Source: Methanothrix sp. (GTDB lineage Archaea > Halobacteriota > Methanosarcinia > Methanotrichales > Methanotrichaceae). From it: a DNA stretch of 39,971 bases. The position numbers and the translations under genes were made by a program. How positions within the stretch are numbered: position 1 is the first letter of the stretch; each line of letters starts with the position of its first letter. Location: NCBI GenBank assembly GCA_040770465.1, contig JAXGJB010000024.1, positions 1-39,971 on the forward strand. Direction: 5' to 3'. This document shows, in pieces, positions 11,173 to 29,910 of the stretch. Under the pieces are notes generated by a model. The model worked only from the letters and a program-made list of their open reading frames with translations, had not been told where the DNA came from and did not search any database.

Positions 11173-11820
11173 TCAGTGGATCGTCCTCGCAAACTCCAGG
11201 CTCGTCTTGATCTGCTCGTTGACGTTCTCGTCCGTCGGCTCCATGTGGCCGGGGTAGAGGACCAGAACGTCCAGGGCCGCCAGCCGCTCCACCGATTTTA
11301 CCAGCTCCTTCACCGCCTCGCCGGATCTGCGGGTCCTCCCGATGTTCCCGTGGGGGAGGAGGGTGTCTCCGGAGAAGAGCGCCTTCGCCCTCGGCTCGTA
11401 TAAAGAGATGGAACCCGGCGAGTGTCCCGGCGTTCCCAGGACCGAGAGGCTCCACTCACCGAGGTTTATGACGTCCCCTTCCTCCAGGGTCCCGTCAACC
11501 CCGAACTCCGCGGGGTCCTCCTCGTAGAGGTAGGAGCCGGTGGCGACGTCGTCGCCGATCTCGCAGACCTCCCCCTCGCCGATCAGGACCTTCGCCCCCG
11601 TCGCCTCCTTGATGGCCGGGACCCCTGCGGTGTGGTCGTGGTGACAGTGGGTCAGGATGATGAACTCGATCTTCCTGGGATCGATGAGTTCCTCGACGTT
11701 CTTGAGGATCGCCTCAGCGTCCCTCCCCGCATCGATGAGAGCCGGCACCTCGTCTATGATGAGATAGACGTTCCCCTCGTGGACGGGGCCGCCGCCGTTA
11801 ACCTTATGCACCTTCACCAA
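11173..11820 (-). CDS. Metallo-beta-lactamase fold hydrolase, paralog 2
   Basis: THCHHDHTAG, GTPGHSPGS, FSGDTLL, LYPGH. The TTG start at 11820 aligns with paralog 1 (MVKVHKV vs MVEVHKV) and follows GGGTGA. Confidence 0.9.
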   Translation of the reverse strand: MVKVHKVNGGGPVHEGNVYLIIDEVPALIDAGRDAEAILKNVEELIDPRKIEFIILTHCHHDHTAGVPAIKEATGAKVLIGEGEVCEIGDDVATGSYLYEEDPAEFGVDGTLEEGDVINLGEWSLSVLGTPGHSPGSISLYEPRAKALFSGDTLLPHGNIGRTRRSGEAVKELVKSVERLAALDVLVLYPGHMEPTDENVNEQIKTSLEFARTIH

Positions 11821-11876: not shown

Positions 11877-13205
11877 ATGACTTTGATCGAAGACGCTAAA
11901 AAGGGAAAGACACCCCCCGAGATCGAGACCGTCGCCCGGAAGGAGGGGGTCGACCCCGATAAGCTTCTCCGCCTCCTGGCCCGGGGCCGGGTTGTTATAC
12001 CGCGAAACGCCCGCCGAGAGATTGACCCCATCGGGGTCGGCGAGACCCTCACCACCAAGGTGAACCTCAATTTGGGGTCGTCACGCGGCGTCGCCGACCC
12101 CGAGGCCGAGGTGGAGAAGGCCGTGGTGGCGATGGAGGCGGGGGCAGATACCGTGATGGACCTCTCGACGGGCGGCGACCTGGACCTGATCAGGCGAAAG
12201 GTCCTCGACGCGGTCGGAATTCCCGTCGGCACAGTCCCCATATACCAGGCCGAGGTGGGGGGGAAGCTGACGAGCCAGGGGCTCTTCGACGCCCTCGAAC
12301 GGCAGGCGAAGGACGGCGTCGACTTCGTCACCGTCCACGTCGGCGTCAACCTGAACTCTTTCGAGCGGCTGAAGAATAGCCACCGGATAATGGGCGTCGT
12401 CAGCAGAGGCGGTTCTCTCACCCTCAAGTACATGAGCGAGACCGGGGAGGATAACCCCTACTACGCTGAGTACGACCACCTTCTGGACATAGCCCGTGAG
12501 CACGAGCTGACTTTGAGCCTCGGCGACGGCCTCCGCCCCGGCTGCATCGACGACGCCAGCGACCGGGCGAAGTACATGGAGTTCATAATGCTCGGCGAGC
12601 TCGTCGACCGGGCGAGGAAGGCCGGCGTCCAGGCGATGGTGGAGGGGCCCGGCCACGTCCCCGCCGACGAGATCGAGACGAGCGTCAAGGCGATGAAGTA
12701 CGTCACCGATGGAGCGCCCCTATACCTTCTGGGGCCGATCGTCACCGATGTCGCTCCCGGCTACGACCACATCACCGCCGCCATCGGCGGGACGATTGCC
12801 GGGATGAACGGCGCCGACTTCCTCTGCGCCACCACCCCCAGCGAGCACCTGGACCTCCCGACGAAAGAGGACATCTTCGAGGGGACGATAGTCACCAGGA
12901 TCGCCGCCCACGCCGCGGACCTGGCGAAGGCTGGGGTGAAAGACCGGGCCCGCCTCTGGGACCACAAAATGGCCGTCGCGCGGAGGGACCTCGACTGGCC
13001 TGCCCAGTTCGACATCGCCATAAACCCCGACATCGCAAGGCAGATCCGCCATCGGCGAGGGGTAGACGTCGACACCTGCACCATGTGCAACGAGCTATGC
13101 GCCATCAGGCTTGCCCGAGAGGCGATGGAGCGGGAGGAAGTGAAGGCAAAGACGACGAAGACGAAAAAGGCGGCGGGAAATAAAGAGGGCCGAAGTCAGA
13201 ACTGA
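11877..13205 (+). CDS. thiC: ThiC-family radical SAM enzyme (phosphomethylpyrimidine synthase or BzaF-like paralog)
   Basis: [58 protein letters not shown]-terminal CTMCNELC. Confidence 0.85.
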
Positions 13206-29361: not shown

Positions 29362-29508
29362 CTATCCTCTGCTCTCCTTGGACTTGACGCGAAGCCCCTT
29401 GTAGCCGCACTTGCGGCATCGGGTTGAACGGGAGGCGTTTCGCGCGTTGCAGCGCATGCAGATCTTCATGTTGAGAAGGCGGTTTTCAGCCTCTGGAAAT
29501 CGAGCCAT
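29362..29508 (-). CDS. rpl40e: 50S ribosomal protein L40e (48 aa; below the ORF-track cutoff)
   Basis: Manual translation: [48 protein letters not shown]. Confidence 0.96.
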
Positions 29509-29594
29509 GGAATTATCCTCTTAAGTCGCTTTTATCCGATATGCGATCACCGCAGACGGATCGCGGCGATATGAACTTTTTGGATGAAGGTTGT

Positions 29595-29747
29595 TGGCGC
29601 CGGGGTTGGGATTTTCCTGACGGGGCTTTCTCGCCCCACCATTTTGAACCCAAGCGTCCCAGAAGGGACAACAGGTCTCGAGCCTGCCGCGTTTGGACTC
29701 TTCAGACCCCTTGGAGACAGAAGATTAGTCCGCTCTGCCACCCCGGC
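29595..29747 (-). tRNA. tRNA-Ser(CGA) with two non-canonical introns (33 nt at 21/22; 31 nt at 59/60) and encoded CCA
   Basis: Acceptor GCCGGGG/CCCCGGC + G73 + CCA; anticodon arm GCAGG-CT CGA GA-CCTGT; long variable arm GTCCC/GGGAC; T arm TTGGG/CCCAA. Removing 29693-29725 and 29612-29642 gives an 89-nt cloverleaf. TATAAA lies ~30 nt upstream. Confidence 0.92.
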
Positions 29748-29818
29748 TCCGGCGGTTCTAGTTCAAGCTTCTGGTTTATATCTGTTGGCCCCGGCATCCG
29801 GGTCGATTTGAAAGCCAT

Positions 29819-29910
29819 GGGAGATCGGTTGGGGGGAGATTGGAGATCGACTGGAGTCGATGGGAGATCGATTGGTGAGGATTGGAGGGCGATCGGAGGA
29901 CGATCGGATA
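29819..29910. repeat. Degenerate ~11-nt tandem repeats (GGAGATCGATT-like)
   Basis: ggagatcggtt, ggagattgg, ggagatcgact, ggagtcgat, ggagatcgatt, ggcgatcgga, gacgatcgga in the tRNA/malic enzyme intergenic region. Confidence 0.55.

Follow-up and report, generated by a model that had tools for sequence, protein, structure and literature searches.

The window analysed here, a 39,971-nt stretch of DNA from Methanothrix sp., contains on its minus strand what looks like a serine tRNA gene interrupted in both the D-loop and the T-loop. Such non-canonical and multiple tRNA introns are usually associated with archaea whose endonucleases have a broad specificity. The locus therefore raises two questions, namely whether the interrupted gene yields a working tRNA-Ser(CGA) and which enzyme could remove introns of this kind in its host.

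Structure and copy number of the tRNA-Ser(CGA) gene

The stretch from 29747 to 29595 on the minus strand is a 153-nt tRNA-Ser(CGA) gene with two introns (Table 1). The helices and bulges named in an earlier, sequence-only reading of this strand are all present. Exon 1 includes the 5' strand of the central helix H (GGAC), exon 2 ends within the T-loop at nucleotide 59, and the encoded CCA of exon 3 lies at 29597-29595. Intron 1 is placed at 21/22 in our own numbering; shifting both of its cuts by one A gives the same product. There is no intron at 37/38, as that reading had also stated.

Table 1. Coordinates of the tRNA-Ser(CGA) gene, its parts and its neighbours in the window
Feature	Coordinates	Strand	Remarks
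Unspliced tRNA-Ser(CGA) gene, 153 nt	29595..29747	-	One genome match
Exon 1, 22 nt	29726..29747	-	Acceptor 5' strand, D-stem 5' strand, most of D-loop
Intron 1, 33 nt	29693..29725	-	D-loop 3' end; HBh'-like
Exon 2, 50 nt	29643..29692	-	D-stem 3' strand, anticodon arm (CGA), long variable arm, T-stem 5' strand
Intron 2, 31 nt	29612..29642	-	T-loop 59/60; hBHBh'
Exon 3, 17 nt	29595..29611	-	T60, T-stem 3' strand, acceptor 3' strand, discriminator G, encoded CCA
A/T-rich TATA-like box, putative archaeal promoter	29775..29781	-	About 30 nt upstream of mature 5' end
Ribosomal protein L40e gene	29362..29508	-	ORF, 86 nt downstream of tRNA

When both inserts were cut out by coordinates, ARAGORN called the 89-nt product a tRNA-Ser(cga), which bears out the proposal that cutting after the second base of each bulge restores a normal tRNA. 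The program drew a 7-bp acceptor stem, a 5-bp T-stem, a 5-bp variable-arm helix, the anticodon cga and a G preceding CCA. The spliced product thus has the long variable arm, the CGA anticodon and the discriminator G of a class II tRNA-Ser. The same drawing gives the mature D-stem two standard pairs only, plus an A12-C23 mismatch, and this counts against the explanation that we favour below.

The promoter role of the TATA-like box is putative and follows from its position; no RNA contig extends across it. Downstream, the L40e ORF has a weak Pfam L40e match (20.1 bits versus a cut-off of 23). An RNA contig of 1587 nt extends from the spliced joint between exons 2 and 3 to past 29400, a hint that the L40e gene may be cotranscribed with the tRNA gene, bearing in mind that a contig over two genes proves no single transcript.

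General tRNA finders overlook the gene. ARAGORN reported no genes in the whole window and made no call on an unspliced 251-nt region. Rfam gave no matches at the gathering score and, for 29500-29850, none even at E<=10. The suspicion that standard scans could miss the gene was therefore justified for the two general scans tried (ARAGORN and the Rfam tRNA model). At the genome scale, Rfam returned 43 tRNA matches, none of them on contig C24, and the serine tRNAs listed by ARAGORN (option -i) were GCT, GGA and (mislabelled) UGA only. We found no second tRNA-Ser(CGA) in the 2.54-Mb assembly; a tRNA-Ser(UGA) is located at G000:C12. The codon UCG makes up 23.2% of Ser codons and occurs 15.7 times per 1000 codons in a crude set of 582 ORFs of at least 400 aa.

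A short-word BLAST search for further copies of the introns in the genome found none (the self hits had E values of 7e-13 and 1e-11, and every other hit had E >= 0.57), and we rejected intron mobility, as neither intron is duplicated in the genome. We also scanned the genome for hidden interrupted tRNAs by taking 680,840 candidate BHB removals, keeping the 16,852 with a T-loop motif and submitting these to ARAGORN. All 53 ARAGORN hits across a joint were at known tRNA loci. No other gene with a non-canonical intron was found by the genome scans (ARAGORN, Rfam and the BHB-removal scan). Because the BHB-removal scan takes out one intron only and needs a consensus T-loop, its result leaves room for other two-intron genes. 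tRNA-Cys and tRNA-Ala(UGC) were likewise not found in the genome by these scans.

Splicing motifs, conservation and age of the introns

Intron 2 conforms almost strictly to the hBHBh' motif, with a single A-G mismatch. Its central helix TTCA/GGAA (three pairs plus the mismatch) lies between the bulges AAA and AAT and is followed by a 9-bp inner helix, and the 5-bp T-stem adjoins the bulge as the outer helix of the strict motif. The mismatch is typical of the family: the central helix has four pairs in 9 of the 69 genes, and three pairs plus an A-G or A-A mismatch in the other 60, including the window.

Intron 1 departs from the strict motif at one end. It combines a helix GGAC/GTCC with the bulges TAA and AAA and an inner stem TCTTC/GAAGA, so that a 4-bp H between exon 1 and the intron 3' end is followed by a 5' bulge of 3 nt and an inner helix of 5 bp. 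The site of the 3' cut is within an internal loop without an adjoining outer helix, the 3' "bulge" being one side of that loop. The outer helix h that a strict hBHBh' motif has directly at the 3' bulge is therefore missing, and the whole gene cannot be classed as a pure strict-motif substrate. This pattern holds across the D-loop introns compared. H consists of four pairs in 97/97 (GGAC with GTCC, GTTC or GTCT), and the number of base pairs adjoining the 3-nt 3' bulge is zero in 95 and one in 2; a 2-bp outer helix behind a 4-nt bulge is possible in all 97. Intron 1 had earlier been described as BHL-like with no clean outer helix. The absence of the helix stands, and the label does not: with h missing the motif is HBh'-like, and "BHL" names the hBH form, at least as the term is used in PMC3239211. 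A strict motif for intron 1 with a GCG/CGC outer helix was considered and rejected, since C16 faces C57.

In the local fold of the D-arm plus intron 1, the minimum-energy structure has, in order, the D-stem, an internal loop, H, a 3-nt bulge and the inner helix. The UUCA/GGAA helix of intron 2 was absent even from the local predicted fold, and the minimum-energy fold of the whole molecule lacks both motifs (-69.9 kcal/mol, versus -59.4 kcal/mol for the proposed structure). An inner helix of at least three contiguous pairs is found in 96/97 D-loop introns and 61/69 T-loop introns, versus about 6% of shuffled interiors. For covariation, we used an alignment of 69 sequences (A1), with slid partners and 500 shuffles as controls. 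In this alignment, 96.5% of cells were paired, versus 35 to 52% with slid partners. Pairs changed on both sides numbered 10 (shuffled mean, 4.3), and none of the 500 shuffles reached the observed values. Double changes affected four of the five inner-helix pairs of intron 1 and all four of intron 2, and the inner helix h' has thus been maintained by evolution in both introns.

The architecture is widely shared. We collected orthologues at 139 loci, which reduced to 103 distinct sequences sharing all or part of this architecture, an agreement far beyond chance. Both introns were present in 69/69 distinct Methanotrichaceae genes examined, which is the locus comparison across the family that the sequence-only reading had proposed, and the gene was present in 70 of the 74 GGGPS-anchored loci with an upstream flank. 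The exons are almost invariant (exon 1 entirely so in the 69 Methanotrichaceae sequences, bulge position excepted), and intron lengths range from 17 to 47 nt in the D-loop and from 30 to 44 nt in the T-loop. ARAGORN called 43 of the 45 distinct in silico spliced products tRNA-Ser(cga); the two that it missed carry a further insert in the variable arm.

Outside Methanotrichaceae, the D-loop intron occurs alone in most of the other families of the class that were searched (f2, f3, f5 and f6) and in one family outside it (f10). Intronless orthologues were found at seven loci (families f4, f9, f11, f18, f20, f22 and f33). The six of these that we compared are contiguous over both sites and match 43 or 44 of the first 45 nt of the window's in silico spliced product, which fixes the boundaries of intron 1 independently of the motif. 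In a sister family, genera g15 (0/26) and g25 (0/6) gave no BLAST match to the gene, and an anticodon-arm pattern with <=3 mismatches, searched in five complete genomes, gave counts like those of a reversed-pattern control. Judged from this distribution, the D-loop intron is old, at the class level and beyond, with losses, and the T-loop intron dates from the common ancestor of the Methanotrichaceae examined or from an earlier one. The idea that the lineage gained these introns recently is refuted by the presence of both in every distinct Methanotrichaceae gene and of the D-loop intron in f2, f3, f5, f6 and f10. The patchy distribution (present, absent or with an extra variable-arm insert) also provides a clean case for intron gain and loss at a fixed site.

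Spliced RNA, splicing enzymes and alternative explanations

The RNA evidence consists of assembled metatranscriptome contigs from three runs of one mixed-community study. A contig piece ending at 29614 (runs X1 and X3) continues with 12 letters that match 29646-29657 exactly, and the 12 letters in front of a piece starting at 29643 (X1) are those of 29600-29611. Each of these loose ends implies the loss of 31 nt at intron 2 and the joining of exon 2 to exon 3. One of the contigs with this joint, X3 record 14, extends for 215 nt further downstream with two differences from the window, so its source is a close relative of this organism. In X2 record 13, a 63-nt contig maps to 29692-29724 and then again to 29692-29721. 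This head-to-tail 33-nt repeat represents the same circle as 29693-29725, that is, circular intron 1, and both cuts of that intron thus happen in vivo. For X1 record 8, which is also 63 nt long, only the first piece is listed. The formal joint table of the contig mapping is empty, and the splicing evidence comes from the 12-letter loose ends and the one two-piece contig. No contig from run X12 was placed on the locus.

Removal in vivo is thus documented by ligated exons at one joint and by a circular intron at the other site. The exon 1-exon 2 joint was not seen in the RNA contigs, none of which covers 29740-29747 and whose depth is about 1 at 29723-29739; exon 1 is presumably ligated to exon 2 as predicted. 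Some contigs are unspliced, namely X1 record 2, which reads through intron 2, and X1 record 7 and X2 record 11, which both cross the border between exon 2 and intron 1; they may represent precursor RNA or DNA. Depth differences between exon 2 and the introns were set aside as evidence, being per-contig figures.

The host encodes both EndA and RtcB, the pair expected for BHB introns. RtcB is located at G000:C3:98827-100119 (594.9 bits). The single EndA-family ORF in the genome (G000:C5) encodes 352 aa with two PF02778 and two PF01974 domains, and among solved structures its best relatives are two-repeat enzymes of 305 to 315 residues, 1r0v and 2gjw. By its sequence, the protein appears to have an ordinary alpha'2 two-repeat architecture. 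No separate genes for catalytic and structural EndA subunits and no three-unit protein were found in the genome.

We favour the explanation, with a probability of about 90%, that this is the sole tRNA-Ser(CGA) gene and that its two protein-spliced archaeal introns are removed by EndA and its exons joined by RtcB. Several observations stand behind it: the gene's architecture is conserved and its helices covary, intron 2 is seen removed, intron 1 is seen as a circle, and both EndA and RtcB are encoded. The transcript would be a pre-tRNA of at least 153 nt from the cell's only gene of this kind. Intron 2 and the T-stem would fold into a near-canonical BHB (T-stem, 3-nt bulge, UUCA/GGAA, 3-nt bulge and 9-bp helix). 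Intron 1 would present a 4-bp helix, a well-formed 5' bulge of 3 nt and an intron helix of 5 bp, with its 3' cut in an internal loop closed only by the D-stem of 2 to 3 bp. The single homodimer-type alpha'2 EndA would make each cut behind the second bulge nucleotide, with the D-stem and tRNA body taking the place of the outer helix that intron 1 lacks. RtcB would then join the three exons into an 89-nt class II tRNA with encoded CCA and circularise the introns.

How much of this EndA does alone is the less certain part. In the accounts given in PMC3239211 and PMC7714728, alpha4 and alpha2 enzymes need the strict 3-4-3 hBHBh' motif, and these sources together with PMC5829648 report that alpha'2 enzymes need the outer helix. 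The alpha'2 EndA of A. fulgidus did not efficiently remove a D-loop HBh' intron in vitro in the experiments described in PMC5829648. In view of the latter result and the reported need for an outer helix, that the host EndA makes all four cuts unaided, with the D-stem and tRNA body as substitutes, is something that we infer. A broader version of the idea, which we hold tentatively and at somewhat less than even odds, is that alpha'2 EndA routinely processes the HBh'-like D-loop intron in vivo and has been doing this throughout the class Methanosarcinia for a very long time, with the missing helix replaced by the D-stem and tRNA body. Reviews (PMC4090602 and PMC4033280) state that euryarchaea with alpha4 or alpha'2 EndA have only single introns at the canonical position. 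If the broader version is true, the rule that alpha'2 and alpha4 enzymes cut only strict hBHBh' motifs and that their hosts carry only canonical introns is wrong for this branch, and recognition would be assisted by the mature domain in a manner reminiscent of the eukaryotic enzyme.

The most serious alternative accepts splicing as described and differs in the enzyme: EndA may be relaxed in Methanosarcinia, the first of the two options offered by the sequence-only reading, or a helper (tRNA-body contacts, a partner protein or a second nuclease) may be needed for the D-loop 3' cut. We give it a substantial minority chance. The lack of a base pair at the 3-nt 3' bulge in 95/97 D-loop introns and the mismatched central helix in 60/69 T-loop introns speak for it. 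So does the literature cited above, in which the motif is strict and the A. fulgidus enzyme performs poorly, and yet the 33-nt intron is found as a circle in vivo. When the host EndA is aligned with its A. fulgidus relative, one loop of the N-terminal repeat is longer in the host enzyme by about 11 residues. However, this loop is in the non-catalytic repeat and, judging by sequence, matches the catalytic repeat of the same protein in length. An ordinary two-repeat enzyme is also what the domain architecture and the nearest solved structures point to, the genome holds one EndA-family gene only, and an outer helix of 2 bp behind a 4-nt bulge can form in all 97 introns, with the D-stem closing the loop in the local minimum-energy fold.

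It is very improbable that the inserts stay in the mature RNA as extra arms or that the RNA forms come from another organism without the inserts. The RNA data are community contigs that include unspliced pieces, and other families have genes that carry just the D-loop intron or no intron. However, the contig with the exon 2/exon 3 joint (X3 record 14) comes from a close relative, intron 2 is in the DNA of all 69 distinct family genes, and the head-to-tail 33-nt repeat is impossible from any genomic form seen. Still less probable is a decaying pseudogene, in which two insertions broke a former tRNA-Ser(CGA) and UCG is read by tRNA-Ser(UGA): standard finders are blind to the gene, the tRNA-Ser(UGA) could in principle read UCG by wobble and no such gene was found in two sister-family genera, but the exons are invariant family-wide, the inserts evolve freely yet keep their helices through compensatory change and lie precisely within splicing motifs, UCG is a codon in frequent use, and the pattern named beforehand as the mark of a pseudogene (no spliced RNA and an intact copy elsewhere) fails both ways, given spliced and circular forms in the RNA contigs and no second copy. 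The two-intron tRNA-Ser(CGA) gene is functional in this acetate-using methanogen, and its introns are old and conserved.

Relation to known archaeal tRNA introns

The element is of a known kind in an under-described lineage. A full-text literature search found no description of these introns in Methanosaeta/Methanothrix or other Methanosarcinia, and we do not claim that they are absent from print. Globally important acetoclastic methanogens have kept a two-intron tRNA gene throughout the family, and most of the class searched has kept the D-loop intron, one splice site of which breaks the strict-motif rule. The gene is a natural, conserved substrate for probing the strictness of alpha'2 endonucleases. 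It also matters for annotation, as scans of the ARAGORN/Rfam type list these genomes as having no tRNA-Ser(CGA), which can distort estimates of tRNA complement and completeness for metagenome-assembled genomes.

The following comparisons are with the systems as described in the sources cited. The pre-tRNA-Glu(UUC) of Methanopyrus kandleri has a canonical intron and a relaxed HBh' D-loop intron (Kaneta et al. 2018, PMC5829648). It shares with the present gene a euryarchaeal methanogen host, two introns and an HBh'-type intron in the D-loop, where the bulge at the intron helix is well formed and the other site is poorly constrained. The second intron is at 37/38 in M. kandleri and in the T-loop here. 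The enzymes also differ: M. kandleri EndA is an (alpha-beta)2 heterotetramer without the specific loop, whereas our host has a single two-repeat alpha'2 gene. The same study found an alpha'2 enzyme (A. fulgidus) poor on the D-loop intron in vitro, in contrast to the in vivo evidence for both cuts in the present case.

The T-loop site has a counterpart in ARMAN-2, in which pre-tRNA-Cys(GCA) and pre-tRNA-Pro(GGG) have introns at 59/60 (Fujishima et al. 2011, PMC3239211) and the tRNA-Pro intron is strict hBHBh', like intron 2. ARMAN-2 differs in having a three-unit epsilon2 EndA of broad specificity and 56% of its tRNA genes disrupted, whereas our scans found no further gene with a non-canonical intron. 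In 'Ca. Methanohalarchaeum thermophilum' HMET1, the tRNA-Pyl genes have one or two BHB introns (PMC9071458); this organism too belongs to the methanogen/haloarchaeal branch and has a tRNA with up to two such introns, in a different tRNA and lineage. Finally, multiple-intron tRNA genes are known from Thermoproteales (Sugahara et al. 2008 and Fujishima et al. 2010, as summarised in PMC4033280 and PMC4090602). As here, where there are two, these genes have two or three non-canonical BHB introns and are missed by ordinary finders. In contrast, Thermoproteales have an (alpha-beta)2 EndA, many interrupted genes and introns that spread between genes, whereas the present case involves one gene, no other intron copy in the genome and vertical conservation over a family or class.

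The gene, its spliced product, and its place in the genome

The sequence-only reading had described a tRNA-Ser(CGA) gene at 29747 to 29595 on the minus strand, interrupted by one intron in the D-loop and another in the T-loop; its transcription was exact, and the observation was confirmed in every detail. When both introns were excised by coordinates, the remaining 22 + 50 + 17 = 89 nt were folded by ARAGORN as tRNA-Ser(cga), with a 7-bp acceptor stem and 5 bp each in the anticodon stem, variable-arm helix, and T-stem. The D-stem consists of two G-C pairs and an A-C mismatch, and a discriminator G precedes an encoded CCA. Genes of the window's genus and of the nearest relatives also encode this CCA (29595-29597); CTA, CTT, or TTA stands in its place after most other Methanotrichaceae orthologues. 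Standard scans do miss the gene, as had been suspected: ARAGORN found no tRNA in the whole window, and the Rfam tRNA model gave no match at the gathering score, nor at an E value of ≤10 on 29500-29850 alone.

The assembly (2.54 Mb in 66 contigs, 94.85% complete; the window is contig C24) belongs within the Methanocrinis/Methanothrix harundinacea group of Methanotrichaceae, as judged from how its nearest relatives are titled. Genome-wide, with introns allowed, ARAGORN made 57 calls (several of them spurious long-intron calls) that included Ser(GCU) and Ser(GGA) and lacked Ser(CGA). The Rfam model matched 43 times in the genome and never on C24, and the locus itself was a single match. No other tRNA-Ser(CGA) was thus found by ARAGORN, Rfam, or locus matching. 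In a crude set of 582 open reading frames (ORFs) of ≥400 aa, UCG has a frequency of 15.7 per 1000 and a share of 23.2% among serine codons. The gene is therefore the sole cognate tRNA for a common codon.

Two other ARAGORN labels had to be corrected: the Ala(tgc) call on C12 is a tRNA-Ser(UGA) gene with a 37-nt canonical intron, and the "tRNA-SeC(tca)" on C35 reads as tRNA-Arg(UCG) without its 17-nt canonical intron. A scan for removable bulge-helix-bulge (BHB) introns, taking out a single intron and requiring a consensus T-loop, revealed no further interrupted tRNA genes, and neither intron of tRNA-Ser(CGA) recurs elsewhere in the genome. ARAGORN, the Rfam model, and the one-intron scan also did not find tRNA-Cys(GCA) or tRNA-Ala(UGC), which may be missing from the assembly (completeness, 94.85%) or concealed by multiple introns. 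The tRNA-Ala(UGC) gene is frequently located in rRNA operons.

Features of the tRNA-Ser(CGA) locus and related genes of the assembly (window positions unless a contig or locus is named)
Feature	Location	Strand	Remarks
Exon 1	29747-29726	-	22 nt
Intron 1 (D-loop)	29725-29693	-	33 nt
Exon 2	29692-29643	-	50 nt
Intron 2 (T-loop)	29642-29612	-	31 nt
Exon 3	29611-29595	-	17 nt
A/T-rich box	~30 nt before mature 5' end		putative promoter
48-aa ORF	downstream	same as tRNA	weak L40e match (20.1 bits; cut-off, 23)
PcrB-family GGGP synthase	downstream	same as tRNA	
Malic enzyme	upstream	divergent	
tRNA-Ser(UGA)	G000:C12:12367-12491	+	canonical-site intron 12405-12441 (37 nt); CCA encoded
tRNA-Arg(UCG)	G000:C35:11488-11578	-	read after excising canonical intron 11524-11540 (17 nt)
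EndA (splicing endonuclease)	L111:1264-2322 (G000:C5)		352 aa

Intron motifs and their conservation

In the following, nucleotide 1 is 29747, and the strict splicing motif, hBHBh', comprises an outer helix (h), a bulge (B), a 4-bp central helix (H), a second bulge, and an inner, intronic helix (h'). For intron 2, the T-stem (95-99 with 138-142) runs straight into UUCA (100-103), which pairs with GGAA (131-134) through three standard pairs and one A-G. The bulges are 3 nt each (AAA, 104-106, on the 5' strand; AAU, 135-137, on the 3' strand), and the inner helix has 9 bp (107-115 with 122-130). The motif is a full hBHBh' with one mismatch, cut between T-loop nucleotides 59 and 60.

Intron 1 has a central helix of GGAC (17-20) with GUCC (50-53), a clean 3-nt 5' bulge (UAA, 21-23), and an inner UCUUC/GAAGA helix (24-28 with 45-49). 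A GCG/CGC outer helix was ruled out, as C57, directly after the 3' AAA (54-56), faces C16. Only two closures are possible: the D-stem itself (G10-C59 and C11-G58), or two base pairs separated from H by a bulge of 4 nt. The minimum-energy local fold of nucleotides 8 to 61 runs from the D-stem through a 5x4 internal loop to H, the 3-nt bulge, and the inner helix. With an internal loop at the 3' cut, the motif is HBh'-like, i.e., without the outer helix. The lack of a clean outer helix in the sequence-only reading thus stands, and its label "BHL-like" does not, as PMC3239211 uses that name for the other relaxed form, hBH. The whole-molecule minimum-energy fold lacks both motifs (-69.9 versus -59.4 kcal/mol for the proposed structure), and the weak UUCA/GGAA helix is absent even from the local fold prediction; folding energy by itself would not make the case for the motifs.

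We compared orthologues through a search anchored on the neighboring GGGP synthase, which gave 80 named loci, 6 of them without upstream flank. The tRNA gene was present in 70 of the remaining 74 (1 broken by Ns and 2 truncated at contig ends) and absent from four: two in Methanotrichaceae, where the synteny differs, and two in Methanoperedens. Adding loci from whole-genome searches brought the set to 139 loci and 103 distinct genes. Both introns occur in 69 genes, all from Methanotrichaceae; 28 genes have only the D-loop intron, and 6 have neither. A seventh intronless gene (L145) was seen separately, the gene pattern having missed it. Over the first 45 nt of the window's spliced product, the intronless genes compared agree with it at 43 to 44 positions, which fixes the boundaries of intron 1 independently of the motif.

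In the alignment of the 69 two-intron genes, exons are nearly invariant, and introns vary in sequence and length (D-loop, 17 to 47 nt; T-loop, 30 to 44 nt). The proposed structure pairs 96.5% of cells, compared to 35 to 52% when partners are slid by 1 to 3 columns. Ten pairs change on both sides (shuffled mean, 4.3), mainly in the inner helices (4/5 pairs of intron 1 and 4/4 of intron 2). None of 500 shuffles reached any observed measure; kinship alone can beat shuffles without structure, a caveat addressed by the slid-partner control and a per-sequence test. In the latter, H was completely paired in all 97 D-loop introns, and an inner helix of at least 3 contiguous pairs was found in 96/97 D-loop and 61/69 T-loop introns, versus ~6% of interiors after shuffling. 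Only 9/69 T-loop introns had a completely paired central helix, and 95/97 D-loop introns had no pair adjoining the 3' bulge.

Distribution and age of the introns

We searched a sample of 201 genomes of the class with a 122-nt query carrying only the D-loop intron. In the window's family, 93 of 99 genomes matched, and every match listed ended at the T-loop (query positions 106 to 109). Matches were full length in genera g12, g14, g16, g17, g18, g27, and g29 of sister family f3, meaning that the D-loop intron is present and the T-loop intact. Two f3 genera, g15 (0/26) and g25 (0/6), had no match to the query (e.g., G051, G063, G071, G073, and G103), and in five complete genomes an anticodon-arm pattern did no better than its reversed control; in these larger genomes (2.9 to 4.2 Mb), tRNA-Ser(CGA) may be missing or very different. 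The D-loop intron also occurs in families f2, f5, and f6 (just 17 nt in f6), and contiguous genes occur in f4 of the same class and in f9, f11, f18, f20, f22, and f33 of the phylum. In f10, from another class, two loci (L143 in G204 and L155 in G240) carry a 17-nt D-loop intron at the site of intron 1 and an additional insert of ~37 nt inside the variable arm. ARAGORN finds no tRNA at these loci, at which the same gene is thus interrupted twice in another arrangement.

The distribution across families implies that the T-loop intron is at least as old as the sampled Methanotrichaceae and that the D-loop intron is older, with losses or repeated gains. The suggestion that the introns were gained recently is refuted by their spread over family, class, and beyond.

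Splicing in vivo and the probable enzymes

Parts of the stretch are present in eighteen sequencing runs, of which three (X1 to X3, from one anaerobic digester study) are recorded as RNA; the RNA evidence consists of that study's assembled community contigs. Run X12 had no contig on the stretch. The formal joint table for the RNA contigs was empty, and the evidence comes from loose ends of contig pieces. In X1 and X3, a piece that ends at 29614 is followed by 12 letters that match 29646-29657 perfectly. X1 also contains a piece that starts at 29643, and the 12 letters before it match 29600-29611 perfectly. As the triplets 29612-29614 and 29643-29645 are the same, both loose ends correspond to removal of the 31 nt of intron 2. 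Record 14 of X3 (1587 nt) begins 12 nt inside exon 2, reads directly from there into exon 3 over the splice junction, and extends across the spacer to the L40e gene and farther downstream. Its 215 nt downstream (29400-29614) differ from the window at two positions, indicating a very close relative. This contig hints that excision of intron 2 may precede cleavage of the 3' trailer and that the tRNA and L40e share a transcript, although a contig over two genes is not proof of a single transcript.

For intron 1, record 13 of X2 (63 nt) maps to 29692-29724 and then again to 29692-29721. At word length 31, a circle of 33 nt yields a unitig of exactly 63 nt, and 29692-29724 and 29693-29725 describe one and the same circle; the record thus matches circular intron 1 exactly. 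Record 8 of X1 is also 63 nt long and begins with the same piece; no second piece is listed for it. Circularized introns are described as a by-product of archaeal splicing (PMC7714728). The expected spliced product and circular intron were therefore found in RNA as the exon 2-exon 3 joint and head-to-tail intron 1. The exon 1-exon 2 joint was not seen in X1 to X3, where no contig covers exon 1, and unspliced pieces were also among the RNA contigs.

The genome encodes RtcB ligase and a single EndA-family protein, in which N-terminal and catalytic-type domains each occur twice. The best matches to this protein among solved structures are two-repeat enzymes of 305 to 315 residues (1r0v and 2gjw), which we take to be the Archaeoglobus fulgidus homodimer, and its architecture is alpha'2. 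Compared to the closest solved two-repeat enzyme, it has ~11 extra residues in a Gly/Lys/Pro-rich loop of the N-terminal, noncatalytic repeat, which makes this loop similar in length to its counterpart in the enzyme's catalytic repeat.

Intron sites already on record include position 59/60 and positions in the D-loop (PMC4090602), and a Methanonatronarchaeon reportedly has tRNA-Pyl genes interrupted by one or two BHB introns (PMC9071458). Database curators are probably aware of such introns, as the tRNAscan-SE 2.0 intron model is described as trained on curated noncanonical introns "from Crenarchaeota and Euryarchaeota" (PMC8450103). Full-text searches, key tRNA surveys, supplementary tables, and GtRNAdb aside, found no description of the introns for Methanosaeta/Methanothrix or other Methanosarcinia. 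We file the kind of element as well known and the tRNA-Ser(CGA) case as new or at least undiscussed; it is of interest because motif and enzyme type do not match, because its conservation runs deep, and because there is evidence for it in vivo.

As reported, alpha4 and alpha2 enzymes require a strict 3-4-3 hBHBh' (PMC3239211), and that of Haloferax volcanii cleaves no other form (PMC7714728). Euryarchaea with alpha4/alpha2-type enzymes are described as limited to a single, canonical intron in any tRNA gene (PMC4090602), and M. kandleri and M. thermautotrophicus are the only euryarchaea for which PMC4033280 lists multiple-intron tRNAs. The HBh' D-loop intron of M. kandleri pre-tRNA-Glu was poorly removed by A. 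fulgidus EndA in vitro (PMC5829648). The tRNA-Ser(CGA) gene departs from the reported alpha4/alpha2 picture, as its D-loop intron is HBh'-like and there is in vivo evidence for both cuts. The strict-motif rule may be drawn too narrowly, in which case the outer helix would be replaced by the D-stem and tRNA body, or the EndA of this lineage may have broader specificity.
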